Shown here: positions 4,301 to 61,676 of the stretch, piece after piece
Layout of the letters: each line of letters opens with the position of its first letter
How positions within the stretch are numbered: the stretch's first letter is position 1
From: Deltaproteobacteria bacterium
Lineage (GTDB): Bacteria > Desulfobacterota > Desulfomonilia > UBA1062
Assembly: GCA_018436855.1 (NCBI GenBank)
Contig: JAHDKO010000016.1
Span: 7,286-71,285, forward strand
Reading direction: 5' to 3'
DNA: 64,000 bases
The notes under the pieces: model-generated
What the model was told of the DNA's origin: nothing
Database searches by the model: none
The model's input: only the letters and a program-made list of their open reading frames with translations
Position numbers and translations under genes: made by a program

Positions 4301-4343
4301 GGTATTATTCTTTGAGCAGGAAATAAATTGAGCACAAAAAAAG
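4301..4343 (-). promoter_or_regulatory. Conserved element A, copy 1 (candidate activator-dependent promoter)
   Basis: +strand ggtattattctttgagcaggaaataaattgagcacaaaaaaag. Matches the consensus GTATTATTCTTTGAGnGGGAAATAAAACGnCnnCAAAAAAAA seen at 9 other loci. Confidence 0.5.
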
Positions 4344-17670: not shown

Positions 17671-17714
17671 GGTATTATTCTTTGAGGGGGAAATAAAACG
17701 CCGGGAAAAAAAAT
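17671..17714 (-). promoter_or_regulatory. Conserved element A, copy 2
   Basis: ggtattattctttgagggggaaataaaacgccgggaaaaaaaat, 36 nt upstream of the GTG of 17041..17634. Confidence 0.5.
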
Positions 17715-20444: not shown

Positions 20445-20488
20445 ATATGACATATAGCATACTTGAAGTTATTTGTCAAGTATTATTT
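20445..20488 (-). promoter_or_regulatory. Sigma70-type promoter (family B): AATAATAC-TTGACA-N17-TATATG
   Basis: Minus strand gaaaataatacTTGACAaataacttcaagtatgcTATATG. Confidence 0.45.
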
Positions 20489-20494
20489 TCATTA

Positions 20495-27713: not shown

Positions 27714-27759
27714 GGGTATTATTCTTTGAGCGGGAAATAAAACGCCCTCAAAAAAAATA
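27714..27759 (-). promoter_or_regulatory. Conserved element A, copy 3 (abuts the trbC start codon, leaderless geometry)
   Basis: gggtattattctttgagcgggaaataaaacgccctcaaaaaaaat. In gene orientation AATAAT-N6-ATG. Confidence 0.5.
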
Positions 27760-31763: not shown

Positions 31764-32195
31764 CTATTTTTTTACCGGAATCATCCCGGCAACCAACTGG
31801 TTTACAAACTCCCTGCATTCAGGTGCGACCTTGCCGTTTCTGACGCACCTGTCCATTATTTCTGCAAGAATCACAGTCTCCGGGGTCTGTGAATATCCCC
31901 AGGCATCATCCTTGCGCTCGGCCAAATACTCCCTGATTTCCTTGGGTAATTCAGAAACATCCATTTCATTGAAATATTCATCCTTCAAATTGCCTGATAA
32001 ATCCTTGTAGTGATCAGCATAATCTTTTATTTTCCCGCCATAACGGGAAAGATTATCAATATGATCACTCGTGGCCGTTCGCACTTTGTCTACACTCCAA
32101 CCGTTGTGTACCGCCCATAAATAGGCTCCAATGCACAGAACGAGAACAATCAGAATGGTGATCGGATCGAAGAAACCTCTATTGTTTGCGCTCAT
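31764..32195 (-). CDS. small membrane-anchored protein, hypothetical (TrbI-like position)
   Basis: 143 aa with an N-terminal TM helix. Confidence 0.35.
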   Translation of the reverse strand: MSANNRGFFDPITILIVLVLCIGAYLWAVHNGWSVDKVRTATSDHIDNLSRYGGKIKDYADHYKDLSGNLKDEYFNEMDVSELPKEIREYLAERKDDAWGYSQTPETVILAEIMDRCVRNGKVAPECREFVNQLVAGMIPVKK

Positions 32196-32199
32196 ACAT

Positions 32200-32243
32200 G
32201 TATTATTCTTTGGGCGGGAAATAAAACGGGAACAAAAAAAATG
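32200..32243 (-). promoter_or_regulatory. Conserved element A, copy 4 (5 nt from the start codon)
   Basis: tgtattattctttgggcgggaaataaaacgggaacaaaaaaaatg. Confidence 0.5.
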
Positions 32244-41377: not shown

Positions 41378-41420
41378 GTATTATTCTTTGTGCGGGAAAT
41401 AAAACGGCTTCAAAAAAAAT
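41378..41420 (-). promoter_or_regulatory. Conserved element A, copy 5 (fills the gap between dsbC-like and ompA-like genes, AATAAT-N6-ATG)
   Basis: ggtattattctttgtgcgggaaataaaacggcttcaaaaaaaatg. Confidence 0.5.
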
Positions 41421-42201: not shown

Positions 42202-42463
42202 TATCTCCGACCATCTGACTGATTAATTCGCCCTGGTCGTTATTCCCTTCTTTATCAATGTCCTGATCAACTTCCCCGACTTCTCGCGCAGGGCCTAAAT
42301 CACTGTTCACCCCCTTGCAGCTCAGGTACGCTCTCCCTGCGTCACTCCTGAAAAATACCAACAAGGCAAGCTCCGCAACTTCCTTCCTTAATCCCCTGGG
42401 AAGGCTGTTCAGAATCCTTACAACCTCGTTCTGGGTAAAAACGACGTTCAGCCTGACTCTCAT
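42191..42463 (-). CDS. parR: ParR-like centromere-binding protein (partner of ParM)
   Basis: 90 aa immediately downstream of parM with an acidic C-terminal tail. Call rests on gene order and size. Confidence 0.4.
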   Translation of the reverse strand: MRVRLNVVFTQNEVVRILNSLPRGLRKEVAELALLVFFRSDAGRAYLSCKGVNSDLGPAREVGEVDQDIDKEGNNDQGELISQMVGDIDD

Positions 42464-43477: not shown

Positions 43478-43521
43478 TGCTTATTCTTTGAGAGGGAAAT
43501 AAAACGGCTTCAAAAAAAATG
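43478..43521 (-). promoter_or_regulatory. Conserved element A, copy 6 (upstream of parM)
   Basis: tgcttattctttgagagggaaataaaacggcttcaaaaaaaatg. Confidence 0.5.
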
Positions 43522-43676: not shown

Positions 43677-43856
43677 CGTTACACCCCCTGAACGATCATA
43701 AAACGCCACCTTGGAGGGGGTTAAGTGCATGTTTGGGGCATTTTCTACACCCCCCACTTAAAAATCGCACTGAAATATTGTTACACCCCCTGAATGATCA
43801 TAAAAGGGCGACTTAGAGGGGGTAAAGTGCATGTTTGACGCATTTTGAACATGAAA
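43677..43856. repeat. Two 68-bp direct repeats (period 112 bp), each with an internal inverted repeat (ACCCCCT/AGGGGGT)
   Basis: gttacaccccctgaacgatcataaaacgccaccttggagggggttaagtgcatgtttggggcatttt versus gttacaccccctgaatgatcataaaagggcgacttagagggggtaaagtgcatgtttgacgcatttt. Confidence 0.6.
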
Positions 43857-44460: not shown

Positions 44461-44950
44461 AGAGAGATATCGTGGCGTTTATTGTTATGACATTTTTCAT
44501 CGCATGTTTATCGGATCAAGTGTTTCGGATTCATTTTTGAAATAGCATTGGAACATGAGAGTTGACTTGCGATTTGACTTCTTTTGAATCCCCCATGTTT
44601 TCCTCCTGTTTTATTATTGTCGATCAAGCTGATCCCTATGTGATCGCCATTCTTTCGGAATCTAATTTTATCCAAGCATATCCCTCATGTTTTCCGAGTA
44701 AGAGAGCAGTTATGGCAAAGAAAATATTTTCCAATAATCTTGCCATGTTTATCGGAACGAATGTTTCCTTTATAATTTCTTCATGATTTTCTTTTAAGAG
44801 AGCAGTTATGGCGTTTACGTGTTCCCAACATTTTGCCATGGATTATCGGACCCTGTTCTTTCGTGATATTTTTCTTTTAAGATCCCTATAAGAGAGCTGT
44901 TATGGCGTTTAAAATGATCGTATCGGAAATCGCCTGGACTGCGGAACGGG
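44461..44950. repeat. Iteron-like degenerate tandem repeats (~92-98 bp units, 4-5 copies), core AGAGAGCAGTTATGGCG plus TTTATCGGAAC
   Basis: Cores at about 44461, 44700, 44798 and 44890, plus an inverted partial copy at about 44641. An AT-rich stretch precedes them (43860-44460). Confidence 0.55.
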
Positions 44951-45459: not shown

Positions 45460-45495
45460 TTTTTTGTCGTTTTATTTCCCCTCCAAAGAATAGTG
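45460..45495 (+). promoter_or_regulatory. Conserved element A, copy 7 (plus orientation)
   Basis: ttttttgtcgttttatttcccctccaaagaatagtg, 20 nt upstream of GGAAGGAG and ATG 45515. Confidence 0.5.
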
Positions 45496-45514: not shown

Positions 45515-46063
45515 ATGGACAATACTAAGTCGATCAAATCGAGTAATCCCACGTCACGCAAGAGAGAGGCATCGTCGCTGGACAAATGGATTGAGGCGCG
45601 TATTTGGAGCCATCTCAAGAGGAATTACTTAAACGGAACGCATTATCATATCTCTATTAAGCGTTTACTGACAGAGCTTCGAACCCTCTATGATATTTCT
45701 CCAACCGACAAGTGGATTATTTATAAGATTAAGGCGATCCGTAAGCGTGTATTGCGTAAATGGTATCACGAGAAAACCAAGGTTTTGGATTGGTCAATAG
45801 AGCTTGGTCTGCCTTTTGATTTTCTTTTTCCTCATTATCTCCGTGGACACTTAACCTCGCTGATTACCGCAAGGCTTTTTGCGAGTCTTTATATCGAGAT
45901 GTCGGGGCTTTCCCAGGGTCTTCCTGCCCACATTTTCATAGAGATGACAAGGAAGCGGGAGTTGGAGCGTCGGGAGAAGAACAGGGCTATAGCTCGGCTG
46001 GATGCTCGGGAGCGCAATGCGAAAAAGCAGGTCCATGATCAGGACCCTGACGCGAGTTCTTGA
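45515..46063 (+). CDS. basic hypothetical protein (candidate replication or relaxosome accessory protein)
   Basis: 182 aa, Lys/Arg-rich, directly downstream of the iteron region. No recognisable motif. Confidence 0.4.
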   Translation: MDNTKSIKSSNPTSRKREASSLDKWIEARIWSHLKRNYLNGTHYHISIKRLLTELRTLYDISPTDKWIIYKIKAIRKRVLRKWYHEKTKVLDWSIELGLPFDFLFPHYLRGHLTSLITARLFASLYIEMSGLSQGLPAHIFIEMTRKRELERREKNRAIARLDARERNAKKQVHDQDPDASS

Positions 46064-46086: not shown

Positions 46087-46130
46087 TATTTTTTTTTCAG
46101 GCCGTTTTATTTCCCTCTCAAAGAATAAGT
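46087..46130 (+). promoter_or_regulatory. Conserved element A, copy 8
   Basis: tttttttttcaggccgttttatttccctctcaaagaataagtc. Confidence 0.5.
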
Positions 46131-46921: not shown

Positions 46922-47425
46922 ATGATCAATCAATCAATATTACTCATGTCGAGAGATACCGGGACAGAGATATGTAATACTGATCCCGTTAAGGCAAGGT
47001 TTCACTATTACTCTCTCCTTGAGTACGGAGAGCCCGGTGAGAGCATCTGGGTAGACAACGGCAGGGTTGGGTACAATTTTGAGTACGCTGATATCCATGA
47101 GTTATATTATCGCTCTCACCCTCATGATGACCGTCCATCCCGGTATTTGGGCAAAAAGTTATATTATGAGCCCACCGCATCCGGGTTAAAGATCCTGATA
47201 GTATCCAAAAAGCATCGAACTGCTGTTCACGCTCATATCGATTTCGCAAGTAAGCAGATAAACTTCGCAAGCATATTTCGTTCGGACAACGACTTTGATT
47301 ACAGTCTGACATTTGCCGAAATCGGCATACTTCATCGTCTTATACTTGACGGGGAAACATTCGCGCAAGCTCCTGATTCACAAGTTTATATAGAACACCA
47401 GGATAAGATCAGGATGATCGGATAA
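46922..47425 (+). CDS. hypothetical protein (167 aa)
   Basis: ORF at the head of a six-gene plus-strand array. Confidence 0.4.
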   Translation: MINQSILLMSRDTGTEICNTDPVKARFHYYSLLEYGEPGESIWVDNGRVGYNFEYADIHELYYRSHPHDDRPSRYLGKKLYYEPTASGLKILIVSKKHRTAVHAHIDFASKQINFASIFRSDNDFDYSLTFAEIGILHRLILDGETFAQAPDSQVYIEHQDKIRMIG

Positions 47426-47442
47426 ATCAGGCAGGAGGTAAC

Positions 47443-47670
47443 ATGGGGTATAGCAGCAGATACGGTTGGGTTCGAATCGGCGTGTATATTTGGCCCTTTG
47501 CGGAATACCGGCAGATCACGAAGGGTCGCTACAAGGGCCTTTACGAGATACTTGTAAACAACAACAAGTACATTGTCACTGCTGACCGGATCAAGTCGTT
47601 CCCTTCTTTTGCGAAAATTGATCTCTCGGGAAATAATCATGTCTCAAGAGATTGCCACCATGATGCATAA
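47443..47670 (+). CDS. small protein, paralog A of a duplicated pair
   Basis: FAEYRQITKGRYKGLYEILVNNNKYIVTADRIKSFP is similar to FVEYREITKGRQKGYYEITALGRKYIVHPKHIVRFP in 48127..48363. Confidence 0.45.
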   Translation: MGYSSRYGWVRIGVYIWPFAEYRQITKGRYKGLYEILVNNNKYIVTADRIKSFPSFAKIDLSGNNHVSRDCHHDA

Positions 47671-48130
47671 CAAGGGGGTATGTATGAACGTCCGCATGAA
47701 CACATTGAGAAATTTTCGGGCGCACACTGTTCAGATCGCAAATATGTTTTGGCTTGCGGCGATAGATCCCGAGAACCCGCCACAGTCGTTCGTTGATTTT
47801 TTTGAAGGTCAGTCAACGGCTGATATGCAGCTCATTTTCGAGGATCTTGAATTACCGGACCTCGATAATTACGAGGATGATGAGTTTGCGCGAGTAGTGC
47901 TTGAGCACCTTGACCTTGCTGAGAAGAATGGCTTTATCGCTGTTCTCAATATCCCGTTAAAGACAGGCTTCACCGAACACGGATGCATGGCCCATCGGGC
48001 AATCACTCATTGCCCCATAATCTATGCGGACACCCTGGATGATCTCATGATCAAGGCTGTTGAGTTGGCCGAAAAGCTGAAAGAGTCAGATCGCCAGGAA
48101 TATGAAGCCGCGATGAGGGATCAGCTATGA
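47639..48130 (+). CDS. acidic hypothetical protein (start uncertain: 47639 or 47660)
   Basis: Asp/Glu-rich (FEDLELPDLDNYEDDEF). Could be a DNA-mimic-like protein, unconfirmed. Confidence 0.4.
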   Translation: MSQEIATMMHNKGVCMNVRMNTLRNFRAHTVQIANMFWLAAIDPENPPQSFVDFFEGQSTADMQLIFEDLELPDLDNYEDDEFARVVLEHLDLAEKNGFIAVLNIPLKTGFTEHGCMAHRAITHCPIIYADTLDDLMIKAVELAEKLKESDRQEYEAAMRDQL

Positions 48131-48363
48131 GTAGTGCGCCTGCCACGTTTGAATACGGTTTAGCTCATGTTCAGAGAGGCTTCCGTACTCAAGTTAAGCC
48201 ATTTGTCGAGTACCGCGAGATCACGAAAGGTCGGCAAAAAGGCTACTACGAGATTACAGCCCTGGGCCGGAAATACATTGTTCATCCAAAGCACATAGTC
48301 AGGTTTCCCGGTGAACTGGATAAACAAGTTAAAAAGAAAGTCAAAAAGGAGTGTTTGTCATGA
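48127..48363 (+). CDS. small protein, paralog B of a duplicated pair
   Basis: See 47443..47670. Confidence 0.45.
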   Translation: MSSAPATFEYGLAHVQRGFRTQVKPFVEYREITKGRQKGYYEITALGRKYIVHPKHIVRFPGELDKQVKKKVKKECLS

Positions 48364-48746
48364 TCGGCACTATACCGCTTATTTTCAGAGTTGCTTACCG
48401 CAACCGGGCTACTGCTGAGATCACATACAGGGTTATCGGCGTTGGGCAGTCGTTTCCAGACATCGGCCCAAAATGGGTTATCATCGGAATTGATCAGTAT
48501 GTCGGTCTCATTGATAAAGGTCGCAAAGTTTTCACAGGTGACATCTATACATTCCTGCACATGACGCATCCAATCACCGTATCATCGAAGCATGGACTGC
48601 GATTCATGCACGGTGATTTTCAACTCAGCGATCACGCTGTCGAATTCGGTCAATTTAAGGGAACCATTTATGAAGAAGATAATGAAGAAGGAGGTCGATA
48701 TGGCTACTCTGTCAACACCATCCCCGGAAAACACAAAGCTGTCTGA
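48360..48746 (+). CDS. hypothetical protein
   Basis: ATG 48360 preceded by AAGGAG. Confidence 0.4.
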   Translation: MIGTIPLIFRVAYRNRATAEITYRVIGVGQSFPDIGPKWVIIGIDQYVGLIDKGRKVFTGDIYTFLHMTHPITVSSKHGLRFMHGDFQLSDHAVEFGQFKGTIYEEDNEEGGRYGYSVNTIPGKHKAV

Positions 48747-49572
48747 TATAATTAAATATTGCAAACCCCTGTCTGATTTTCGTAAAAAGACGGGCTACGG
48801 TACTTTTCCTGATCCGGGATTCTTTGAAAAAAGTGATTCCCCGGCGAACCAATTATTCCGGTTTTGCATGTACCTTGAACTGGTTATGTACGAAGTGGAA
48901 GACGGTGTTATCACTCTTGATACCGCTCGTAAAAAGCTAGATGCAATCAACAACATACTGCGATTTTCAGCTCAGTCTCAATTTTTGATTGATCCTATTG
49001 CTTACTGCTTATCAGACACTAAATGCGATCAGAGCAACACCGCTGCAGCTTCCGAAGCGTTTGCAGAATGGCTCATAGAATCGGATCTTCCCGATTATGA
49101 ATGCGCCAATATGGGTAAACTTCTTTATTTACAAACTTGTTATGGCTTGCGGACGATAGATTGCTGCTCAATGGAATTTTCGGAAGACGATCTGGAAGCT
49201 GACACCCTTTCTCTTGTTAATCGTAAAATTTTGCCGCGAAAGCAAATACTGGCAAACCTGAACGCGATGTATGCAATATTATTCACGTTTATTCTCGATG
49301 AAGAGTTGCCATTTGTTTTTCACGGTGAGCGTCATTTTTACGCGCACAATCTGTATTACGAAATGTGGCGCAAGGAGTCGGGTGTTGGCCTTGATTGTCC
49401 TGTTGTTCTCGATCTCACTCCGAAAGATTGGCTGTCATACGCGAGTGAAACTGCTGTCATGGAGACAGACGAAGTGCTCAAGATAGATAAAAGAATACGC
49501 CACGACCTTCAGCTCTCTCTTCACATAAAGAATGCCTCGTGCGTTGCAAATTATCTTGGAAATTCGGCATAA
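48700..49572 (+). CDS. hypothetical protein (290 aa)
   Basis: ATG 48700 preceded by GAAGGAGG. Confidence 0.45.
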   Translation: MATLSTPSPENTKLSDIIKYCKPLSDFRKKTGYGTFPDPGFFEKSDSPANQLFRFCMYLELVMYEVEDGVITLDTARKKLDAINNILRFSAQSQFLIDPIAYCLSDTKCDQSNTAAASEAFAEWLIESDLPDYECANMGKLLYLQTCYGLRTIDCCSMEFSEDDLEADTLSLVNRKILPRKQILANLNAMYAILFTFILDEELPFVFHGERHFYAHNLYYEMWRKESGVGLDCPVVLDLTPKDWLSYASETAVMETDEVLKIDKRIRHDLQLSLHIKNASCVANYLGNSA

Positions 49573-49758
49573 ACAGATGATATTTATGGTGTTTTACTTA
49601 ACAAATCCATCCATCTATGATATAGTGATAACATAGATAGGGAGTTGATCGTGATAACTTTAGAAGAGGCGATTTTACTTGCTCTCAAGGCGCATGATGG
49701 GCAGATCGACGAAGCGAGAAATCTCTTTGTGAAAATCTATCAAGTCCTGTTGGATACA

Positions 49759-50130
49759 TCACACAACCCCTTCCATCTCTTCGGCGGCAATCCATTTCCC
49801 GTTCTCGTCCCGCACCTCGACCTTGATATTTTCGGGATTCATGCTCTCATCCACGAGCTGTTGAATACTCTTTCCCTTTCGCAACTCGTGGACTTTACGA
49901 GCATGCCAAACCTTGAACTTGGCCGACTGAACCAGCCGCTGCAGGGCGAGTTTCCTGTTCGCATGTTGACTCCGTTCCGACCGGGATTCTCCCACGGCCC
50001 CGGATTCCCGATGCACGATCCTCACCCCGGACTCGGTTTTGTTCTGATGTTGACCGCCAGGACCACCAGATCGAAACACCTGGATATCGAGATCCTTCCT
50101 GGTAATACTGAATAAAAACTCCTTACCCAT
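49759..50130 (-). CDS. GGQ-motif peptidyl-tRNA hydrolase / release-factor (RF-1) domain protein (ArfB or RF-H-like)
   Basis: [66 protein letters not shown] is the class-I RF catalytic domain with the universal GGQ. The antisense ORF 49645..50115 was rejected. Confidence 0.65.
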
Positions 50131-50191
50131 AATAGTCACCCTTCTTGAAAAACTTATCAGAATTAAGACCACATTCCATGAGAGTATCGTG

Positions 50192-50650
50192 TCAACACTC
50201 AGTCTTTCCGTAATATTTTTCATATTTATTATGTAATTCAACATCAAGTTTTTTATTTTGCACTGTTTCAGCCTTGTTGTACAACATATTGATTGCTCGT
50301 TTATAAGAATATTCATCACCCCATGATTTTATCAGTTTATCATGAGATCTCAGCACCATAATTTTAAGAAATGCACTATTCGAATAATGATCCCGGACAA
50401 ACTCTCCGAAATTTGCGAGATACCGAGTTTTCTCTAGTCTGTTTATCTTTACTTTCCGGGTCAGCGAAATCATTAAACAGACTCCAGCCATGATTACTGC
50501 CGCTACAATAGCGTATCCTGAAAATTCTAATATACACACAAATAAGGCAATAAAAACACAGATCAAACTTAAAAAAAATAACGAATCCAACATCTCGAAA
50601 AAATCCCGTGTTTTTTTCAATTCTATCATCTGATCATTACTTAGTTTCAT
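50192..50650 (-). CDS. membrane protein, hypothetical
   Basis: 152 aa with two TM helices near the N-terminus. Confidence 0.45.
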
Positions 50651-50688
50651 TATTATTACCTCCTGATAAATTTTGAGAAAACCATAGA

Positions 50689-50955
50689 TTATACCCTGTA
50701 TGTTTTCTGAGCCATTTTTCCCTCATCCAGTTCTTTGCATATCTCTCTTGCTTTTGCGAAAACATCCTCTGGCTTATTTGTGTATCCCTTTATTCGGCAC
50801 TTGACTTCGGATTTCCTGATTCCCTGTCCATTTAGTTTTGGAAGCCATTGAAACACCCCGACTGAGAACGTGGCACTTCTGAGTGAGTGAGGATTCCCAG
50901 GAGCCCATTCGCCGTAAAAATCGTGTTTCCATACTACTTTGTTTTCTAACATCAT
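50689..50955 (-). CDS. hypothetical protein (~88 aa)
   Basis: Start MMLENK. The long ORF would overlap the upstream gene end. Confidence 0.35.
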   Translation of the reverse strand: MMLENKVVWKHDFYGEWAPGNPHSLRSATFSVGVFQWLPKLNGQGIRKSEVKCRIKGYTNKPEDVFAKAREICKELDEGKMAQKTYRV

Positions 50956-50966
50956 AAACCCCCTTA

Positions 50967-51899
50967 TCACTTCCCGATCAACAAAGTTCCCAGAAAAGCC
51001 AGCCATCCAAGAACAGTAATCCAGATCAGTTTCCAGGATGTCTTCGTGATCCTCACGATCTCGACGTTACCCGTGTCCAGGTCCTCGACCTTCTGAGCGA
51101 GAAAATGCCCCAAAGCCGTTGGAGTAGTAAAACTCTTGTCGGACAACATCTGCGCCAGGGTTACATCGCTGGCATGTCCGAGAGCAGTTATTACCGGAGT
51201 TTTCATCGCCAACATCTGACGGGCAATTGCCGGATCATCGAATACTTCCAGATTGCTTCCCCCTCCCCTGACCAGGGCAATCAGATCGCATTTGCCGTCA
51301 GCCCGTGAGAGTACAGACACCACAGCGCGAGGATCAGAGAAATCCGTCCTGGTTTCCGTAATCGCGTATCGCTCAACAGCGTTACCAAGTGCGCTCATTA
51401 CGTCCTTATCCACGATCCCGCTTTTTCCGTAGATCATGTTGATCCTGGGCTTTTTCCCTTCTGCGATCATACCGATCAATACACCGCCAGCGTCCTTTTT
51501 CCCGATCCTGACTTTTCGCTCCAAAAGCTCGGCCCTCTCGATGATCCGAGTATCCACCTGACTGCCAGCGGCATCAACCTGGGTAGGAACGAAACTCACC
51601 TGAATGCCGGCAGCTCCCGAAGCCCTCACCATCTCCAGAACTCCCCGAAAGCTGTATGCATATCCCGGCTGCAGTTTCACCCGAATCAGTGCAGGCATCT
51701 TGAGCTTGAGCATTTCCCTGGTTTCCTGATCTACAAGTGAATCATAAAAGAAACCTCGGTAGGATTTGCCGTTACCGTGCTCGTACACTCCCCGAACGAA
51801 CCAGACAGTACCCGTGACAACCCTGGTTGCTTCACTCAGGATTATACGGCTCAATTCTCCCGGCGTGATGATCTTCGGTTCGTTCTTTTTCGCAGCCAT
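50967..51899 (-). CDS. Exonuclease VII large subunit (XseA)-like protein, truncated, with C-terminal TM anchor
   Basis: N-terminal OB-fold region (ITPGELSRIILSEATRVVTGTVWFVRGVYEHGNGKSYRGFFYDSLVDQE) and a core IALVRGGGSNLEVFDDPAIARQMLAMKTPVITALGHASDVTLAQ that matches the XseA RGGGS...GHExD region. C-terminal WKLIWITVLGWLAFLGTLLIG is hydrophobic. Confidence 0.6.
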   Translation of the reverse strand: MAAKKNEPKIITPGELSRIILSEATRVVTGTVWFVRGVYEHGNGKSYRGFFYDSLVDQETREMLKLKMPALIRVKLQPGYAYSFRGVLEMVRASGAAGIQVSFVPTQVDAAGSQVDTRIIERAELLERKVRIGKKDAGGVLIGMIAEGKKPRINMIYGKSGIVDKDVMSALGNAVERYAITETRTDFSDPRAVVSVLSRADGKCDLIALVRGGGSNLEVFDDPAIARQMLAMKTPVITALGHASDVTLAQMLSDKSFTTPTALGHFLAQKVEDLDTGNVEIVRITKTSWKLIWITVLGWLAFLGTLLIGK

Positions 51900-51925
51900 G
51901 CGCCCTCCTTTTTTTTCAACTCGCG

Positions 51926-52261
51926 TTATTCGATAACCACGAGTGCTCCCTGCTCTTCCAGCTTTTTCTTGGCGAGAAAAGCATTCTCGGAATCGACCAA
52001 TTCCAGAATCTTTGACGGTGTATTTTCGGAAAGATCCTTTGCCTCCTTGAGCCCGAGATTCGTTACCTCGCGAATCATCTTGATAACACAGATCTTAGCC
52101 TTTCCGGCATCCATCAACACAACATTCACCAGTTTTTTCCCGAACAGACGCACGATGACTCCAGGCTTTTCCGCTGCCAGCTTGTAAAACATTTCCTTGA
52201 ATTCCCCATCCTTAATGTTGCCCAGAATCTCGATTGCCTCTGCGTAATAGTTTCTGCCCAT
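51926..52261 (-). CDS. Ribosomal protein bL12 (L7/L12)-like protein
   Basis: C-terminal [59 protein letters not shown] matches the L7/L12 CTD ([27 protein letters not shown]...AEALKKALEEAGAEVEVK). AAGGAG RBS. Confidence 0.7.
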   Translation of the reverse strand: [111 protein letters not shown]

Positions 52262-52539: not shown

Positions 52540-52580
52540 TATCTCTATAACATACATTAAGTATAATGTCAAGCATAAAT
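52540..52580 (-). promoter_or_regulatory. Sigma70-type promoter (family B): TTGACA-N17-TATAGA
   Basis: Minus strand tattatttatgcTTGACAttatacttaatgtatgtTATAGA. Confidence 0.45.
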
Positions 52581-52677
52581 AATACTATTTGTGATATTTT
52601 ATAATATCAAACTGGTTTGTTATTGTATTAGTAAAATTATAATTGACTTTTTTTATTTATTGTGATATGAGTCGCCC

Positions 52678-53694
52678 ATGATGATAAAAATGGCAAATGT
52701 CAACGACCTGATATTCGACCCCAATACGTACCTGAAAAAATATAACCAAACCGTGTTGGACAAGGCCATGTCATGCATCAGCTCGGGTATCCCCTGCCCT
52801 CCTGTTGATATAGATGCAAATATGCGTATCATAGGCGGTCACAAACAGTGGATTGCGTCAGTAAGAGCCCGGAAGAAAACTGTTCCGGTGCGTGTGCATA
52901 ATCTTATCAGGTCCGACACAGACGCACTCATGTTTGCCTGTAAGCAGTTATCGGACACGCTTACTAGCGACGAGCGCAATACTGCAATCGCGCTTACGCT
53001 CAATTCAATCGATGATCCGGCTCAACAGCCGATCATAAAAAACACCTTATCTGAAATCCTTAGAGTGTCGCTGCTCGATATAAACAAGGCAAAAATTGAA
53101 TACAACATGGACAGCAATGAAAATGAGAATTCCGCTATCGTGTCTCTGTACTTGAACAGTCACACAGTAGCTCAGATATCACGAAAGCTGTCTATATCCA
53201 AATACTTCGTTATCAAAACATTGACCGAAGAAGGGTTATATACATCTCAATACAAAATGCCCGATCTTGAACAGGCCGATATTGACGATTTCATAGGCAA
53301 CTCCCTTGATGATGCCATTTCCCGCAAAGACGATGAAATGGACATGCTGCTCGAAATGATGGAGGGAACCTGCGCGTCTTTGACGGAAGAGTTTAATCGT
53401 TACGGTATGACTCTCGACAATTTTAAGGAAAACGTCCGATCAACACGATCCCAGGCTGACAAGGCAACAAATTCGCTCGTTACGCTGCTTGAACGTTTGC
53501 GCTCAACGATCCCTGTCCTGAAAGATCCCAAAATGATAGATGAGTTACTGCTGGAGCTTCAGCCCCTTGTTGCTGTTTCCAAGGAATTTATCAAAATTGT
53601 AGAACAATACAAGGGAGATTTCGGCCAGCCTGATACACCGCTGTCCTTGATGAAGAAACATTACCTGAAGCTGATCGAGGCTGCAGAAAACTAA
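52678..53694 (+). CDS. ParB/Srx-fold N-terminal domain protein
   Basis: VNDLIFDPN...PPVDID...RIIGGHKQWIASVRARKKTVPVRV resembles the ParB N-terminal nuclease-like domain (GERRWRAA box). Confidence 0.5.
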   Translation: MMIKMANVNDLIFDPNTYLKKYNQTVLDKAMSCISSGIPCPPVDIDANMRIIGGHKQWIASVRARKKTVPVRVHNLIRSDTDALMFACKQLSDTLTSDERNTAIALTLNSIDDPAQQPIIKNTLSEILRVSLLDINKAKIEYNMDSNENENSAIVSLYLNSHTVAQISRKLSISKYFVIKTLTEEGLYTSQYKMPDLEQADIDDFIGNSLDDAISRKDDEMDMLLEMMEGTCASLTEEFNRYGMTLDNFKENVRSTRSQADKATNSLVTLLERLRSTIPVLKDPKMIDELLLELQPLVAVSKEFIKIVEQYKGDFGQPDTPLSLMKKHYLKLIEAAEN

Positions 53695-54950
53695 GCATCG
53701 ATGGGTCTGATCACTCCCCCGAACCCCTGGTAATCCCCTCCCCTTATATTCAGGGCAATCCCTATGTTCACATCGATCAGCTTTTCGTCCCAGGTTTTTA
53801 ATTTTCCTGTTATTTCCTCAGTCCACATTTTCTGGGGATTTTCCCGGTACGACAAGGCCCCGCGAACTAATGCATCCGCAAATAATTCCAGAGTATAAAT
53901 GTCAAACATTGATACACGGGCATCGTGAATTAATTGCTCGACACTCCATCCTAATAATTTTGTTGCATATGAAGAGATGTAAGTGAATTCCAGCTTGTCG
54001 TTCACCATCCACACAATACCCTCGATCTGTTCCGTAAAATACTCAATGAATTTAGGATTATAAAGAATACTATTCCCTATGACGGACTTCTCGGCATCAT
54101 TCCAGATCGGTGGATCAATTTTTAAAATTACGTTCCCGCTGCCATCGGAGATAACTCGTGTAGAACACATGCACACCCCTTTTGTCCGGGTAACGTACCG
54201 AATATTTTCAGTGATGATTTTCATCCCCCCGCTGCTTTTGCCGCTCATGTGTTTTTTCAAAAAAGCCACATCATCGGGATGCACGAATTTGGCTATATTA
54301 CGCGCCAACATTTCCCCGTATGCTCGGTAGCCAAAAATATCCTCGATACTGTAGGGCGCATAAAGAATAGTTCCATTCCCGTCAGTGAAGATGTTGTATG
54401 ACGATGTTTGGGTTATGGTTGCCGGGATGGAATTGATTTCCTCATCATGAATGATTTTTAAAAGATCATTGCATATGATTCCAAGCGATATTTTTTCACT
54501 GACCTTAATAATTTCAATTAAATCATTCTGTTTCCACCTTAAATCTTCATCCGACTCAACAACCAGGACACCCAAAAAATCATCAGACCCCAGGTGCGCC
54601 CGTGTGATGAAAACCGATTTGACAAGCAACGAGCGTATTTCCTGATCCACAAGTTTATCCTGATCACCGGAAGAGAACATGTCCAGTGTTCCGGGGAGTA
54701 GTATATCCATCTTGATTGCGCCAATAAATGTTTCCGGGTATTTCGCCGTCCAATCGAATTGAGCATTATCATTATTATCGTACCATATCTCCCCGGATTG
54801 TTTATCCGAATGCATCTGCACAATCGGCCTCATGGTCATTTTATTCAGATCAACAATCTCATAAAAGATCAGCCGCTTCCCAGGAGAATACTTGGACAGA
54901 GCTGTAACGAGAATTAGCCGCGAAACATCTGTAATACTCGACATTTGCAC
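53691..54950 (-). CDS. PAS/GAF-domain sensor protein without recognisable output domain
   Basis: Two PAS-like segments (NIFTDGNGTILYAPYSIEDIFGYRAYGEMLARNIAKFVHPDD and EGIVWMVNDKLEFTYISSYATKLLGWSVEQL). Confidence 0.55.
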   Translation of the reverse strand: MQMSSITDVSRLILVTALSKYSPGKRLIFYEIVDLNKMTMRPIVQMHSDKQSGEIWYDNNDNAQFDWTAKYPETFIGAIKMDILLPGTLDMFSSGDQDKLVDQEIRSLLVKSVFITRAHLGSDDFLGVLVVESDEDLRWKQNDLIEIIKVSEKISLGIICNDLLKIIHDEEINSIPATITQTSSYNIFTDGNGTILYAPYSIEDIFGYRAYGEMLARNIAKFVHPDDVAFLKKHMSGKSSGGMKIITENIRYVTRTKGVCMCSTRVISDGSGNVILKIDPPIWNDAEKSVIGNSILYNPKFIEYFTEQIEGIVWMVNDKLEFTYISSYATKLLGWSVEQLIHDARVSMFDIYTLELFADALVRGALSYRENPQKMWTEEITGKLKTWDEKLIDVNIGIALNIRGGDYQGFGGVIRPIDA

Positions 54951-55048: not shown

Positions 55049-55083
55049 TTGACAATTAGTGTAATTTCTGGTATAGAGACAGC
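55049..55083 (+). promoter_or_regulatory. Sigma70 promoter TTGACA-N17-TATAGA positioned for a leaderless transcript of the XRE gene
   Basis: TTGACA at 55049-54, TATAGA at 55072-77 and ATG at 55084, so the -10 ends 6 nt before the ATG. Confidence 0.45.
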
Positions 55084-55395
55084 ATGAAGCCAAAAGAGTA
55101 TATCAGAAAATACAAAATAAAGCAGAAACAAATGGCGAAAGACCTGGATATAACGCCGGGTTATCTGTCCGGGATCATCAATGGGACGCGAACGCCTTCT
55201 CTCGACCTCGCTTGTCAGATCGAGAAATACTTCAATTATGAGGTATCGCGCCTGGAGTTGTTGTATCCAAATGAAGATTGGAACATTCTCAAGAACCCGA
55301 TTCCTCTTCCTTCACCGTCATCCGCTCCCGCGACAATCATCTCCAGTGACACAAAGAAAAAAGTGCTGGACATCATCAGGGGATCTAAGGATTGA
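55084..55395 (+). CDS. XRE-family HTH transcriptional regulator
   Basis: QKQMAKDLDITPGYLSGIINGTRTPSLDLACQIEKYF is a canonical XRE HTH. Confidence 0.6.
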   Translation: MKPKEYIRKYKIKQKQMAKDLDITPGYLSGIINGTRTPSLDLACQIEKYFNYEVSRLELLYPNEDWNILKNPIPLPSPSSAPATIISSDTKKKVLDIIRGSKD

Positions 55396-55862
55396 AGCCC
55401 CTGCCCCTTCTCCCCATGTTCGCGTTTTGGCTTATATCCTCGGGGTTTTGCTTCGAGCAGGCAGGCAGCTATTATAATATTTCGCCCATCCTGCTCAGTG
55501 CAATATCCTGGGTGGAGAGCAACCATACGCCAGGGGCGATAAACCACAACCGCAACGGGTCCGTTGATTGTGGACACATGCAAGTCAACTCTTTCTGGGC
55601 AGATAAAATCGGCCCGGATTATCAGTATCTAAAAGGCAAAGAACCCGAGCACTCCTGTTATCAAACATATGTCGGGGCATGGATACTGCGTCAATGCATT
55701 GATCGATACGATCAGACATGGGATGCAGTAGCCTGCTATCATGCAGGGCATGGTCTGAACAGACTCAAGGGTGCATCAAAAATACGCGCAGAAAAATATA
55801 TCGGCAAGGTCAAGGAGGCTATCAGAAAAAACAAAATTATCACAACGCTCGTGAAGGAGTAG
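55392..55862 (+). CDS. Lytic transglycosylase (VirB1/P19/F-orf169-like)
   Basis: Signal peptide and an SLT catalytic region LLSAISWVESNHTPGAINHNRNGSVDCGHMQVN. Confidence 0.7.
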   Translation: MKPLPLLPMFAFWLISSGFCFEQAGSYYNISPILLSAISWVESNHTPGAINHNRNGSVDCGHMQVNSFWADKIGPDYQYLKGKEPEHSCYQTYVGAWILRQCIDRYDQTWDAVACYHAGHGLNRLKGASKIRAEKYIGKVKEAIRKNKIITTLVKE

Positions 55863-55865
55863 CAC

Positions 55866-56705
55866 ATGGCTGAAATTGACGGAATTGACAGCGAAGTTCG
55901 GTCATCAACTAGAAGATTATCACTACGGGCTCTCTCAAACATTATGCCCGAAGGCAATGTGAGGGTTGAGTCCGCACAGATTGCCGACCTCGCAATTCTT
56001 GAAGCCGCTGATATTTGTCGCCAGAACCCTGAGAAGAATATTAAGCGGGTAGCCCACCGCCTTGTGCAGCGTTATATCACACAGTTACACTCCGATCCTT
56101 ACCGTTTTCTGTCCCGCGCCACCATAGATTCGGCAGCGTGTATCGAAGACATACTCAAGATTATCGGTCACAAGCCTACACGGAATTTTACCAGCATCAA
56201 TATCACTTTGTATCAGCGAAAGGATCTCAACAGTACACTACGGCACTATCGATACAATGTATCGATTCTTGGCCGGAATATTAAAATCAAATCCTCTCCT
56301 TCGGGCCTTGACATCATGGGTAATTTGCGCTGCTATATCAGACCTGTCGATTTTCCCGGCAACTCAGCGGACGATTACTCGATTAATAATCTCATAGACC
56401 AGCACTCATACAATGAGTGGAGAGACAATCAGAGCGGAAACGAGGCTTCTGAATCTCCTAAAGTCGATCCCGATCTTTTGCTCCATCTTTCGCAATGCAT
56501 CATGTTCCTGAATTCCAACCGCCGTCACTTCCTTATTGAGTCGTTTGGATTATGGGGTTGCGAACAATCTTCCACCTTTGATCTGGCAAAAAAATACGGA
56601 CTGACACCCCGTAATATCAGATACGAAATCGATAAAGCCCTTGCTGAATTGAAAGAGATAATGTCTCGCAACGACGATAAGGCAACCAGTAAGCATAGTC
56701 TGTAA
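55866..56705 (+). CDS. Sigma-70 region-4-like HTH protein (candidate element-specific transcription factor)
   Basis: C-terminal LSQCIMFLNSNRRHFLIESFGLWGCEQSSTFDLAKKYGLTPRNIRYEIDKALAELKE matches the sigma70_r4 pattern (ReR.vl.lrfGL.g.e.tl.Eig..fgvTreRIRQIE.kAL.KL). Confidence 0.5.
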   Translation: MAEIDGIDSEVRSSTRRLSLRALSNIMPEGNVRVESAQIADLAILEAADICRQNPEKNIKRVAHRLVQRYITQLHSDPYRFLSRATIDSAACIEDILKIIGHKPTRNFTSINITLYQRKDLNSTLRHYRYNVSILGRNIKIKSSPSGLDIMGNLRCYIRPVDFPGNSADDYSINNLIDQHSYNEWRDNQSGNEASESPKVDPDLLLHLSQCIMFLNSNRRHFLIESFGLWGCEQSSTFDLAKKYGLTPRNIRYEIDKALAELKEIMSRNDDKATSKHSL

Positions 56706-56747: not shown

Positions 56748-57035
56748 ATGCATAGCAAATCCGAGAGTGTGGTGGCATTCATCAAGGAGTTGACAGAAAA
56801 GCATCAGATGGAAAAAATTGTCCTTATGTCCCGTATTCAGGAATTAGAAAAAGAAAACCAGCAGCTCCGGGAACAATCCGAACCATCGCTGCTTTTAAAC
56901 AAGGGGGTTATTCCCTTTATCCAGTTCTCGTTCAAATTTATCGAGGATATCATGAATACTCTCGATGATGAATCCCGCGCCAAAATACAGGAGATATTAA
57001 ACAAAGAGGACGAACCGGATCATTCCTCTGTCTGA
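56748..57035 (+). CDS. coiled-coil hypothetical protein
   Basis: GGAGGGTATC RBS. Heptad-like QELEKENQQLREQ. Confidence 0.4.
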   Translation: MHSKSESVVAFIKELTEKHQMEKIVLMSRIQELEKENQQLREQSEPSLLLNKGVIPFIQFSFKFIEDIMNTLDDESRAKIQEILNKEDEPDHSSV

Positions 57036-57721
57036 TTATTTTTTTTGTTTTTTTTGAGAATTAATATTTCGCCCATTTCACGTGCTATTTCCCTGATATG
57101 TTCTTTTTTAACAAATGTATTTGTTTCAACGATACTTTTCACTCCGACAATTCTTTTAATGCATTTGAAATCGCCCCATGGATAATAATATCTCAATAAA
57201 GCGGGAGCCATACTGATTGTGTTCCTGCTGACAAATACCGAGCACGGCCTGAGCACTTTATCGACATAAAACATCATGGAGCTTCCGCAACTATATCCAT
57301 CCCGCGAGTTCCATCGATGTCTCATCATGATTGCTACCCATCCGTTCAAATCCACGTGTATTTCCTGGGCGGTAATGCGTACAACGGTTCCCCGCACGGC
57401 TTCATGGACCTTCTCCCTCCACCGCCTATAATTATAATCGTCCTCGATATACGTCAAACAATCCGGTAATCGCTGTCGCACCGCCTTTGTTACCTCCGCT
57501 GGCAACCTATCAAACTCTATGGGTATATAAGAGTGATTCCTATAAAACCATGCCTTGACAGTACCATTGTTAATTTCCGCATACGCCTCACCCTGGAAAT
57601 GTTCGGAAAGCACTGTTGCCAAAGTAAGTTCCAGACCGTCCTTGACAATTTGAGGGTTGGTGTTTCTCCATTTGCACACATCCGTTATGAATGATTCAAA
57701 TGTAGGTCCTGCGGCTTCCAT
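57020..57721 (-). CDS. hypothetical protein (233 aa)
   Basis: ORF divergent from 57792 with shared element A copies between them. Confidence 0.4.
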   Translation of the reverse strand: MEAAGPTFESFITDVCKWRNTNPQIVKDGLELTLATVLSEHFQGEAYAEINNGTVKAWFYRNHSYIPIEFDRLPAEVTKAVRQRLPDCLTYIEDDYNYRRWREKVHEAVRGTVVRITAQEIHVDLNGWVAIMMRHRWNSRDGYSCGSSMMFYVDKVLRPCSVFVSRNTISMAPALLRYYYPWGDFKCIKRIVGVKSIVETNTFVKKEHIREIAREMGEILILKKNKKNNQTEE

Positions 57722-57733: not shown

Positions 57734-57790
57734 TTTTTTGTCGTTTTATTTCCCGCACAAAGAATATGTTCTTTGAGGGGGAAATAAATT
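57734..57790. promoter_or_regulatory. Conserved element A, divergent pair (copy 9: one minus-oriented and one partial plus-oriented copy, back to back)
   Basis: ttttttgtcgttttatttcccgcacaaagaatatg followed by ttctttgagggggaaataaattg. Serves divergent genes 57020..57721 and 57792..58067. Confidence 0.5.
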
Positions 57791-58077: not shown

Positions 58078-58821
58078 ATGGGTAAGGGCTCTCTTTCATC
58101 GGCGGCAGTAATACCCATTGGTGACTCGAAAAAAACTACTCGACGGCTCCCGCATCTGATTGACGCGATGAGCGATATTCAACAGTATTATATTTTCGAA
58201 TCAACGGGTCAGGAAATACCTCATGAATTTCTCACCATAAGAGATTCTCTCGGATTTTTTAACACAGGTTTTGGAGCCGGTTTTTTTGAGGGGTTAATGT
58301 TTTCCATCCTGCTCACGATATGTATGCCACTCGTAATCGACACACATGCTATGAACGTCCTGACTACGGCGATCCCGTTTTTGGGCTCTCCCTGGTTTCT
58401 CATTTTCTTTTCCATAACCCCGGTTCTCTTCGCATGTGCGCTGTGCTGCTGGATGGGTAAATACTATGTTGGCAGCATAACCAAACGGGCAATCGATAAT
58501 TTATTGCTTGGCCGCGCCACTTCCCTGTTTCTCACAGGTTTTTTGCTGTTCACCATCCTTACAACAGTGGGTGCGTTGTTAACTCCTGCCAGGGCATACA
58601 GTGCCGGCATGTATCTGGCGGGAGTGTTTCCTGCTGGATCTATGATTCCGCAGACTGTGTATGATATTTTGCTGAACCTTCCTCCGATCATGGTGCGCCG
58701 GGCTATTCATCAGGGGATCATATTAATAACAGGTGTTGCGCTTCCCTACCTCACAATATGGGGAGTCGTTTATTTTCGAGATCGTTATATTTCGTACCAA
58801 AATTCCAAAATAGGTCACTAG
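58078..58821 (+). CDS. polytopic membrane protein (possible TM domain of a split type IV coupling protein)
   Basis: 247 aa with 5-6 predicted TM helices, immediately upstream of the ATPase. AGGAGG RBS. Confidence 0.45.
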   Translation: MGKGSLSSAAVIPIGDSKKTTRRLPHLIDAMSDIQQYYIFESTGQEIPHEFLTIRDSLGFFNTGFGAGFFEGLMFSILLTICMPLVIDTHAMNVLTTAIPFLGSPWFLIFFSITPVLFACALCCWMGKYYVGSITKRAIDNLLLGRATSLFLTGFLLFTILTTVGALLTPARAYSAGMYLAGVFPAGSMIPQTVYDILLNLPPIMVRRAIHQGIILITGVALPYLTIWGVVYFRDRYISYQNSKIGH

Positions 58822-58830
58822 GAGAATAAC

Positions 58831-60171
58831 ATGTTTAAAAGAAAATCTGATCGCATTCTTGTCGGGACCGGGAAGATGCTCAATAAATTTGGGAAAGAGC
58901 TTCCCAGGATTATGTCGTTGGGAATTCCTAATGCATATCGCAAATCGCACATGTTCTGCTTCGGAACCACCAGGGTAGGAAAGACAAAGCTGATTGAAAC
59001 CCTCATTGAACAAGATATACGCGCAGGCAGATCGGTACTGCTTCTCGACCCAAAGGGTGACATTGAAATATTCAGCAAGATCGTCCAGGTTGCATCAGAG
59101 GTTGGTCGTGAAAACGAGATCACGCTGGTCACTCCTATATTTCCGAATTATTCCGGGAAACTCTCGCCATTGACGTATTACTACATGCCCGAGGAAATTG
59201 TAGGTCATATCACGAGTGGTATTCAGGCCAAGGAAGAGTTTTTTGTCAATATTGCATACGAGACAACGCTTGTGATCGTGCTCTCGCTGTTGCTGTTTGC
59301 CGAGCACGAAGGTAAGCCCTACCGGATCAGCATACAGGAGATTAAGGATCGCGCATCATACCAGGGGTTGTGTGAGTTGCAGGACCGCTTAAACAATCTC
59401 CCCTACTCCGACAAGAAAGCGGACATTCTCTCTACTCTCGATCAGGTATTATCCTCTCCGCAGGACTATTTTTCCAAAGTATCATCTTCTCTGCGTACCA
59501 TGCTCACCACATTATCGACCGGCAGCATGAGGCAGATCATTGGTGGTACAACCCAGAACGAGTTTATTCATGCGCTTGAAGTCGGAAAAAGCGTGATCAT
59601 GGTTGTTCAGTCCGGTGCTCTTCTTACCGGGAAAACATCGCACACAGTATCCAGAATGCTCGTATCGATGATCCAAACATTTGCCGGCAGGCGGTTTGCC
59701 TCTGGCCGCACTGTCACCCCCCCATTGTGCGTGTACATGGATGAGGCCGCAAACCTCATGTATCATGGTGTCGAGGATTTGTTCTCTAAAGCAGGAGGCG
59801 CAGGGGTTTGGCTGCATGCGTTTTCACAGTCTCTTGCCGATCTTGATGATGCCATTGGCCCCGCTGCTGCCCGGAGAATTCTCGATAATACCAACACCAA
59901 AATTTTTATGCGTGTCAATGATCCCAATACCAGTAAGTACATCTCGGAGTACGCTGGAGACATCAATCGCTTTTCTCCAGTGCTTTCACTCGGCGGCGGG
60001 ATGAACATCAGAGAAGTTGATGAGCCCTTGATTCGCCCGGAAGAGGTCCAGAACCTAAAAGAAAGGGAGTTTTATCTTTTCTCGTTCGACGGCGCGTTCA
60101 AGGGGACAGTACGCACAGTCAAATCTCCCAAGCAAATAATCGAATTTCCACAGGTGGAGGTGAACCAATGA
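58831..60171 (+). CDS. traD: FtsK/HerA-superfamily ATPase, probable type IV coupling protein (TraD/VirD4-like) soluble domain
   Basis: Walker A FGTTRVGKTKL near the N-terminus and Walker B VYMDEAANL about 255 aa downstream. That spacing is typical of T4CPs. No N-terminal TM region. Confidence 0.5.
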   Translation: MFKRKSDRILVGTGKMLNKFGKELPRIMSLGIPNAYRKSHMFCFGTTRVGKTKLIETLIEQDIRAGRSVLLLDPKGDIEIFSKIVQVASEVGRENEITLVTPIFPNYSGKLSPLTYYYMPEEIVGHITSGIQAKEEFFVNIAYETTLVIVLSLLLFAEHEGKPYRISIQEIKDRASYQGLCELQDRLNNLPYSDKKADILSTLDQVLSSPQDYFSKVSSSLRTMLTTLSTGSMRQIIGGTTQNEFIHALEVGKSVIMVVQSGALLTGKTSHTVSRMLVSMIQTFAGRRFASGRTVTPPLCVYMDEAANLMYHGVEDLFSKAGGAGVWLHAFSQSLADLDDAIGPAAARRILDNTNTKIFMRVNDPNTSKYISEYAGDINRFSPVLSLGGGMNIREVDEPLIRPEEVQNLKEREFYLFSFDGAFKGTVRTVKSPKQIIEFPQVEVNQ

Positions 60172-61634: not shown

Positions 61635-61676
61635 TTTTTTTTGAGGGCGTTTTATTTCCCCCTCAAAGAATAAGTC
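61635..61676 (+). promoter_or_regulatory. Conserved element A, copy 10
   Basis: ttttttttgagggcgttttatttccccctcaaagaataagtc, directly after the stop of the HD-domain gene. Confidence 0.5.

Follow-up and report, generated by a model that had tools for sequence, protein, structure and literature searches.

Conjugative elements of the MOBH/F-type, such as SXT/R391 and IncA/C, are switched on by FlhDC-like activators. In SXT/R391 (MOBH, F-type), the tra promoters have at their −35 a 19-bp box to which SetCD binds; the boxes include a back-to-back pair in a divergent region, and SetCD is itself under an XRE-type repressor (PMC4344509). We analysed a 64,000-nucleotide stretch of DNA from a deltaproteobacterium of the Desulfomonilia (contig JAHDKO010000016.1). 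This whole stretch is called the window, and coordinates refer to it unless the handle of another contig, such as L002, is given. The window is a conjugative element (plasmid or integrative and conjugative element) with an F-type pilus system (TraC, TraB, TraN, TraF, TraH and TraG), an SXT-type coupling protein and an HD-domain protein in the MOBH relaxase position. Here we describe one of its genes, coding for a 279-aa protein that ends in a sigma-70 region 4 helix-turn-helix (HTH), which an original prediction from the sequence had named as the candidate factor for a set of repeated promoters, element A. We are confident that this protein is a sigma-4-type DNA-binding transcription regulator of the element. 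A fuller model has in our judgement an even chance of being right: the protein would belong to a two-part master activator that controls the element A regulon, is itself under XRE control and acts in the manner of SetCD/AcaCD.

The element shares with the carriers of SetCD/AcaCD the MOBH relaxase, the SXT-type TraD and the F-type pilus. The 279-aa protein and its proposed partner would also resemble SetCD/AcaCD in being two subunits encoded behind an XRE-type repressor, with a repeated tra-promoter box that is paired in a divergent region. SetCD/AcaCD (FlhDC family), however, have no sequence or domain relation to the 279-aa protein, the DNA-binding domain of which is sigma-4-like, and no FlhC or FlhD family was found in Pfam/NCBIfam scans of this protein or of its partner. 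The element A box is also nearer to the −10 than the SetCD/AcaCD box, and the function of the protein is one that we infer.

Other systems resemble the locus in part. The middle promoters of phage T4 (MotA/AsiA, sigma appropriation) have a good −10, no −35 and a box just downstream of the −35 position, which is read by a phage-encoded DNA-binding protein working with the host polymerase. Their anatomy is the same as that of element A; T4 MotA, however, has a double-wing DNA-binding domain and not a sigma-4 domain, and no AsiA-like protein was identified in the window element. TraJ of the F-like plasmids activates the main tra promoter and has an N-terminal alpha/beta (PAS-like) domain and a C-terminal HTH. 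The N-terminal part of the 279-aa protein, in contrast, has no Pfam or fold match to TraJ or PAS, and TraJ acts at one promoter whereas the element A regulon is dispersed. In Tn916, Orf7 and Orf8 switch on transcription of the transfer genes and are under the Orf9 repressor (PMC5812530, PMC12229494). As in the operon described here, an XRE-type repressor lies 5′ of a small sigma-related protein and a second protein, but Tn916 belongs to another host phylum, has another type of type IV secretion system, and its Orf7 is a short sigma-like protein, for which no homology to the N-terminal 200 aa of the 279-aa protein turned up, although no direct comparison was made.

The gene and its domains

The gene and the parts of its product are as follows.

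55866..56705, + strand: the gene under study, 279 aa, novel N-terminal region and C-terminal sigma-70 region-4 HTH (open reading frame (ORF), ribosome-binding site, five-member family)
55890..56090, + strand: predicted three-helix unit, residues 9–75, without a conserved aromatic cluster or sigma-2 signature (AF2 models; no Pfam or fold match; mean family identity 39%)
56112..56333, + strand: predicted beta-alpha-beta-alpha-beta-beta domain, residues 83–156, the best-predicted part (predicted local distance difference test (pLDDT) 79–94), with an invariant QRK(D/E)(I/L)N motif (AF2 models, alignment)
56334..56465, + strand: linker, residues 157–200, poorly conserved, with an invariant SYxxW helix (low pLDDT; 27% identity)
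56466..56669, + strand: sigma-70 region 4 (4.1 and 4.2), residues 201–268, four helices (profile, Pfam and hhalign; 53% identity)

The ORF begins with the ATG at 55866 and runs for 279 codons to a TAA stop ending at 56705 on the + strand, just as originally called. Its ATG lies 4 nt past the stop of the preceding SLT gene and 7 nt after an AAGGAG Shine-Dalgarno (SD) sequence. Homologues were found in four other elements with the same gene order. Because of these homologues and of the gene order conserved across the related elements, the gene is real, under selection and restricted to one narrow element lineage.

The family is extremely rare. An exhaustive HMMER search over 1.84 billion cluster representatives returned only four full-length members, each a cluster of its own, namely the query, P0002, P0003 and P0004 (35–44% identity of the query to its homologues), besides weak C-terminal matches to true sigma factors. 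A fifth member, truncated by the contig end, was found in this analysis on L012. Peptide-pattern scans of genome, metagenome and viral contigs gave no further relatives, a word-indexed protein search gave two family members only, and tblastn against plasmids gave only weak matches to rpoS or sigma genes.

The C-terminal domain is a diverged sigma-70 region 4, nearest to that of RpoS. The NCBIfam RpoS model TIGR02394 matched residues 199–270 (E 5.9e-6; profile positions 207–278 of 285), phmmer against PDB RpoS gave E 4.9e-4, and the family profile matched PDB RpoS at E 6.6e-8 with both regions 4.1 and 4.2 covered. In hhalign, the family aligned with a 289-aa sigma factor (P0007) at a probability of 96.7%, region 4 alone being aligned. 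Pfam Sigma70_r4 matched three of the four full-length members (best E 1.8e-4) and gave nothing for the window's own member even at E ≤ 10; identity to RpoS region 4 is ∼30%. The original prediction that the C-terminal 60 aa are close to the region-4 consensus was thus right as to the similarity and overstated as to its closeness. As in RpoS and sigma-70, the domain has four helices, FGL.G in region 4.1 and the T..R..IR...AL..L pattern in region 4.2; it holds FGLWGCE and a recognition helix T-x-R-N-I-R-Y. Region 4 has the highest mean family identity of all the domains (53% vs 27–39% elsewhere), and RNIRY is among the best-conserved segments of the family. While the FGL motif of region 4.1 is kept, the recognition helix is altered: the positions equivalent to sigma-70 R584, E585, R586 and Q589 are P/S/N/Q, R/Q, N/A and Y, respectively. 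As these recognition-helix residues are changed, recognition of TTGACA by the protein is not expected.

In group 1 and 2 sigma-70 factors, regions 1.2–3.2 precede region 4; the 279-aa protein has, in contrast, 200 aa of unrecognised fold. That it has no obvious region 2 was confirmed, as Sigma70_r2 and Sigma70_r3 (Pfam, E ≤ 10) had no match in any of the four members and hhalign found no match between its N-terminal half and sigma factors (probability against RpoE 0.4%). A Pfam scan of the N-terminal 200 aa matched no family, no aromatic residue within 9–75 is conserved across the family, and the invariants of the linker are S181, Y182 and W185. AlphaFold models, made from only four sequences (pLDDT 71 over the full length, 77 over the N-terminal 200 aa), predict three helices, the alpha/beta domain, the weak linker and the four-helix sigma-4 domain in that order. 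The full-length model gave 48 structure matches at E ≤ 0.001, all of them sigma factors, over ∼280 aligned columns, with TM-scores of only ∼0.2. The model of the N-terminal 200 aa alone gave no significant PDB or viral fold match; a possible sigma-factor holoenzyme chain first appeared among its PDB matches at rank 44 (E 1.7). As the sigma matches were lost with this model, they are driven by region 4, and the apparent whole-length similarity to sigma factors was rejected. As modelled, the protein is a sigma tail on a body without recognised fold. With regions 2 and 3 missing by Pfam, hhalign and fold search, we rejected it as a sigma factor proper, that is, one acting on its own.

Two other classes of regulator were considered. 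A LuxR/GerE-type output domain, which had been named as the finding that would speak against the prediction, does not apply: GerE (Pfam, E ≤ 10) matched no family member, and hhalign against the C-terminal domain of NarL (a sequence entered by hand) gave a probability of 2.1%, compared with 96.7% for the sigma factor. MerR_1 gave weak matches in two of the four members (best E 1.1e-3). MerR activators have an N-terminal winged HTH, a long dimerising coiled coil and an operator in an over-long 19–20 bp spacer; here the HTH is C-terminal and the coiled coil belongs to a downstream protein, whether separate or fused, and therefore the MerR family was set aside.

Element A promoters

Counted with the pattern TTCTTTGNGNGGGAAATAAA, element A occurs 11 times in the window, where 0.15 copies are expected. 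Each copy is intergenic, lies 5′ of an operon and is oriented with that gene, and most operons of the element other than that of the 279-aa protein carry one. Unless noted otherwise, the copies below were identified by the motif match.

57745..57764, + strand: heads the 92aa–247aa–TraD–MOBH relaxase operon, half of a head-to-head pair (orthologous pair in L002, L007, L012 and L014; one strict match in L013)
57769..57788, − strand: heads the NusA-S1-like gene, other half of the pair
61651..61670, + strand: past the relaxase gene (orthologous copy at L002 14410)
45471..45490, + strand: 5′ of the 182-aa gene at 45515
46106..46125, + strand: 5′ of a small + strand gene
43484..43503, − strand: 5′ of the 328-aa gene 42460–43446
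41384..41403, − strand: heads the traL/E/K/B/V/C-type pilus operon
32206..32225, − strand: ATG 10 nt past AGAATA (gene 31764–32195, then TraN)
27722..27741, − strand: ATG 10 nt past AGAATA, signal-peptide protein, no SD, predicted leaderless
17678..17697, − strand: ahead of the 197aa–hybrid histidine kinase/receiver–TraT operon
4308..4327, − strand: TTTCCT variant

In gene orientation, element A reads T8-N5-CGTTTTATTTCCC-N3-CAAAGAATAA. Its conserved specific block is CGTTTTATTTCCC, its 18-bp core is TTTC[C/A]C-N6-AGAATA, and its −10-like hexamer is AATAAT/AAGAAT. The −35 window is variable and has no TTGACA-like hexamer 16–18 bp upstream; only the T tract lies farther 5′. A TTG at 19-nt spacing, such as a MerR-type spacer would have, was present in only 7 of 10 window copies and was absent from L002 and L007. 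In five copies an ATG follows AATAAT after 6 nt without an SD, the same spacing as in the leaderless xre promoter described below. Because one leaderless element A gene starts with a signal peptide, its transcript probably begins at or just before the ATG. As this spacing fixes the start, AAGAAT/AATAAT would be the −10 and the box would lie at about −21 to −33. Read in this way, element A would answer to the description of a sigma-70-type promoter without a −35. The lack of a −35 had been foreseen, but not the position of the contact: a factor touching DNA upstream of −35 had been called for, whereas the specific block lies downstream of it and only the T8 tract is upstream.

Other readings of the motif were discarded. 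An Rfam scan of element A gave no match and the motif adjoins start codons, and an RNA element was rejected on these grounds. Promoters of the Bacteroidetes (TAnnTTTG), extracytoplasmic function, sigma-54 and T7 types were dropped by eye, because spacing or sequence did not fit or there was no matching polymerase or sigma gene.

The full 20-nt pattern had no match in L002, which was searched with it. What the related elements do share at orthologous sites is the core TTTC[C/A]C-N6-AGAATA, its spacing unchanged. In L002, L007, L012 and L014 it forms a head-to-head pair in the interval between NusA-like gene and TraD operon, in L013 there is one strict match at this site, and L002 has it again past the relaxase gene. 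Since the proteins of these elements are only 35–76% identical, the retention of the core indicates selection on it as a functional site, one that evolves along with the element. Every related element with a contig long enough to show both has the gene of the 279-aa protein together with the core. The box has two variants only, TTTCCC and TTTCAC, each in one clade, and a comparison of recognition-helix with box changes was uninformative for this reason. Among the GTDB representative genomes, exact GTTTTATTTCCCNNNCAAAGAAT was found as single copies in three unrelated metagenome-assembled genomes (Heimdallarchaeota, Woesebacteria and Marinifilaceae; L003 3074–3096, L004 6984–7006 and L005 2801–2823), two of them just 5′ of an ATG; by a rough estimate about one such match is expected by chance. 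They form no multi-copy sets and look like chance, and we rejected them as true relatives.

In the head-to-head pairs (window 57745–57788; L002 10484–10537; L007 13327–13362), the complement of TTTCCC (GGGAAA/GAGGGGGA) falls 6–10 nt before the start codon of the opposite gene, where it would double as the SD of that gene. As their −10 regions overlap, the two promoters of a pair are probably mutually exclusive.

A proposed two-part activator and its alternatives

The operon that encodes the 279-aa protein, and the gene divergent from it, are as follows.

55049..55077, + strand: predicted sigma-70-type promoter of the operon, TTGACA-17-TATAGA (sequence reading; same layout in L007 and probably L002)
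55084..55395, + strand: XRE-family HTH protein, first gene of the operon, presumed repressor (HTH_3 E 4.4e-11)
55392..55862, + strand: SLT/IagB-like lytic transglycosylase, directly 5′ of the gene of the 279-aa protein (SLT E 9.3e-15; IagB E 4e-22)
56748..57035, + strand: 95-aa leucine-zipper/coiled-coil partner gene with its own GGAGG ribosome-binding site (weak bZIP_2 match; fusions in two relatives)
53691..54950, − strand: PAS-domain protein, divergent from the operon (PAS E 1.9e-10; conserved in L002 and L007)

This is the regulatory neighbourhood that had been described originally, with a PAS protein, an XRE protein with a leaderless start and an SLT transglycosylase. The TATAGA of the operon promoter ends 6 nt before the ATG of xre, and the xre mRNA is for this reason predicted to be leaderless. 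The order xre–SLT–279-aa gene–coiled-coil gene was found wherever contigs reach the flanks (five related elements), and in the related elements the operon faces a conserved 233–244-aa gene and the 91–92aa–247aa–TraD–relaxase operon. The coiled-coil protein is 46–47% identical across all related elements, and its gene abuts or overlaps the upstream gene in every one of them. Two relatives, P0004 and the L012 protein, carry it as an in-frame fusion at the C-terminus of the 279-aa protein homologue. An assembly error is unlikely, since these two fused members are mutually diverged and a 365-aa protein assembled from Logan sequencing runs belongs to the P0004 cluster as well. The fusions in two relatives imply that the two proteins act as one unit, and so would point to an obligatory coiled-coil partner, which the original prediction had missed, and a two-part factor. 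For the same reason, the presence of this partner, we favour an activator complex over a sigma-like subunit.

We propose that the 279-aa protein is the DNA-binding subunit of a two-part, element-specific transcription activator, working with the 95-aa coiled-coil protein encoded directly downstream. Both would be made from the xre-slt operon, the promoter of which is of the ordinary host type; the XRE protein presumably keeps this operon off, and the divergent PAS protein may give further input. The complex would most likely bind the element A box (CGTTTTATTTCCC in the window element; core TTTC[C/A]C six bases 5′ of AGAATA), which would stand in for the missing −35 hexamer. Binding would enable the polymerase of the host to initiate at all 11 element A promoters, those of the pilus, TraN/TraF, TraD–relaxase, TraT and NusA-like operons. 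The promoter of the operon itself is canonical and without element A; a factor at the top of a cascade would be expected to have its own operon in another promoter class. The case for element A as the target is circumstantial: gene and motif occur together, and the ORFs scanned gave no other activator-like HTH or DNA-binding protein as a candidate.

Several points weigh against this proposal. The co-occurrence of gene and motif is confounded by the shared ancestry of the whole element, and two box variants do not make a real covariation test. The box is 6–8 bp from the −10, closer than a normal −35, and therefore a flap-anchored sigma-4 domain would not reach it without other anchoring. A dimer would be expected from the leucine-zipper partner, but element A shows no clear palindrome. 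The real factor could come from one of many small conserved ORFs, for example 45515–46063 and 46922–49572, and the structural models stand on just four sequences (pLDDT 71–77).

Sigma-4-type HTH domains are found in many unrelated regulators, and the 279-aa protein could be an ordinary local regulator with another target (its own operon, the PAS gene, a TTGACA promoter family or an excision or entry-exclusion gene), while element A would be read by some other protein of the element or by an alternative sigma of the host. The window does contain a second canonical promoter family, its flanks conserved (repeats D7, D14 and D17), an alternative sigma of the host might account for the −10-like GAAT of element A, and several conserved ORFs without assigned function remain. 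We consider this reading possible though rather unlikely, since xre already supplies a local repressor, the scanned ORFs yielded no rival DNA-binding candidate, and the site of the operon, behind a repressor and beside the tra genes, is typical of the master activator in related MOBH/F-type elements (PMC4344509). If the protein were a real but highly degenerate sigma factor, or one half (sigma-4) of a split sigma, it would instead replace the host sigma at element A promoters; in detail, the N-terminal helices would sit on the beta-prime clamp and read AGAATA while region 4 on the beta flap read TTTCCC. The FGL motif in region 4.1 is typical of sigma proteins, the 48 matches of the full-length model are all to sigma factors over ∼280 columns, and element A, with 11 copies and a bipartite core, resembles a dedicated promoter class; phage sigma factors such as T4 gp55 are also undetectable by sequence. 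Nevertheless, both this idea and its detailed geometry appear improbable. Sigma70_r2/r3 matches were absent from all four members, fold searches with the N-terminal model alone found nothing significant (a possible sigma chain only at rank 44), residues 9–75 have no conserved aromatics, the middle domain is alpha/beta whereas sigma-3 is all-helical, and the TM-scores of the sigma matches are ∼0.2. The box–hexamer spacing of 6–8 bp also contrasts with the 16–18 bp spanned by a sigma-2/sigma-4 pair, and a coiled-coil partner is not a sigma feature.

To a like degree we doubt a transcription take-over kit aimed at the beta-flap tip of the host RNA polymerase, that is, a plasmid-borne sigma appropriation by a captured sigma piece. 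A free-standing sigma-4 module, tethered by the novel domains and the coiled-coil partner, would here displace or substitute the host sigma region 4 and redirect the holoenzyme to −35-less promoters with a box at about −21 to −33, and the NusA-S1-like paralogue expressed from those promoters would act on the same polymerase in elongation. The gene lies 1–2 kb from the TraD/MOBH relaxase operon, and MOBH systems need auxiliary oriT-binding factors; that the protein is a DNA-processing accessory at an oriT or centromere beside this operon, and not a transcription factor, is nonetheless very improbable. Relaxosome accessory proteins are typically ribbon-helix-helix and not sigma-4, the gene is co-transcribed with xre and not with the relaxase, and no repeat or nick-site-like structure was associated with it in this analysis. 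We give hardly any credence to an RNA-polymerase-binding decoy, in which the sigma-4-like domain would occupy the beta-flap tip or an anti-sigma-like host protein without sequence-specific DNA binding. Region 4.1 and its hydrophobic FGL core are conserved, a neighbouring conserved gene resembles NusA, and the N-terminal domain of NusA uses the same flap-tip site; the high conservation of the recognition helix RNIRY, however, points to DNA contact.

The 279-aa protein is a new domain architecture, while its functional kind, an element-encoded two-part transcription regulator, is already known. Its lineage appears to fill the slot of the FlhDC-like activators with an unrelated factor made of a captured sigma region 4, two domains of unrecognised fold and a coiled-coil partner, and with it goes a sharply defined class of promoters lacking a −35. 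If the link to element A is true, this is a compact system of one operon and an 18-bp core, and it could show a sigma-4 domain working outside a sigma factor and the activation of promoters with a box between −10 and −35. Its practical reach is limited by the rarity of the family.

Other genes and repeats of the element

The NusA-S1-like gene is the other half of the head-to-head pair.

57020..57721, − strand: 233-aa NusA-S1-like protein, gene preceded by an element A copy (TIGR01953 E 8.6e-10; PDB NusA E 0.02 with the profile)

This protein resembles the end of the NusA N-terminal domain and the S1 domain. It is the best-conserved protein of the module (60–76% identity among the elements) and may be a second transcription factor encoded by the element. 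An insertion hotspot separates the coiled-coil gene from the NusA-like gene (L007 11228–12460, L014 4472–5476 and L012 1622–2653): two of these elements carry IS605-family TnpB genes there, the third an AcrVA2-like gene.

The closest match of TraC (47% identity) is on a Desulfosarcina plasmid, that of Desulfosarcina sp. BuS5, which also has a distant NusA-like homologue (28% identity). From this TraC match, the host of the element is probably one of the Desulfobacterota. No homologue of the 279-aa protein and no element A core was found on this plasmid. Its 186-aa ‘sigma-70 family’ protein (RefSeq; L010 10781–11341, − strand, NZ_CP087953.1) has no Pfam match at E ≤ 0.01 and is unrelated to the 279-aa protein. 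Its gene is next to that of a 557-aa multi-HTH protein and two genes away from the NusA-like gene of the plasmid, and the plasmid has its own repeated AAAAAATTCCCC motifs (L010 14374–14616).

Paralogues of translation and DNA-repair parts are encoded on the − strand at 49759–52261.

49759–50319, − strand: RF-1-domain protein (homologues in L002 and L007)
50967–51899, − strand: ExoVII-large-subunit-like protein (homologues in L002 and L007)
51926–52261, − strand: protein with a ribosomal L7/L12 C-terminal domain

We also observed a second repeated promoter family, canonical and sigma-70-type, distinct from element A. It has TTGACA and a downstream A/T-rich −10-like hexamer (on the TTGACA strand) with conserved flanks, and may be a repressor-controlled or early promoter set.

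4222–4258, 18823–18859, 20453–20489 and 52546–52582: second promoter family
11209–11250, 18902–18928 and 49592–49633: further sites of this family

The coupling protein (58078–60171, + strand) appears to be split into a 247-aa membrane protein followed by a 446-aa ATPase; the match of the ATPase to the SXT TraD model begins at profile position 168, and the same split is found in L002 and L007. Tandem-like repeats at 43678–43851 and 44685–44906 (72 nt twice, 85% identical; 32 nt three times, ∼95 nt apart) fall in the lowest-GC stretch of the window (0.38), just 5′ of the element A promoter for the 328-aa gene 42460–43446, and could represent iterons or a centromere. The element A-driven operon with TraT (15115–15846) and a bacterial PH-domain protein also encodes a hybrid histidine kinase (15862–17019, − strand), which has a receiver domain and no DNA-binding output.

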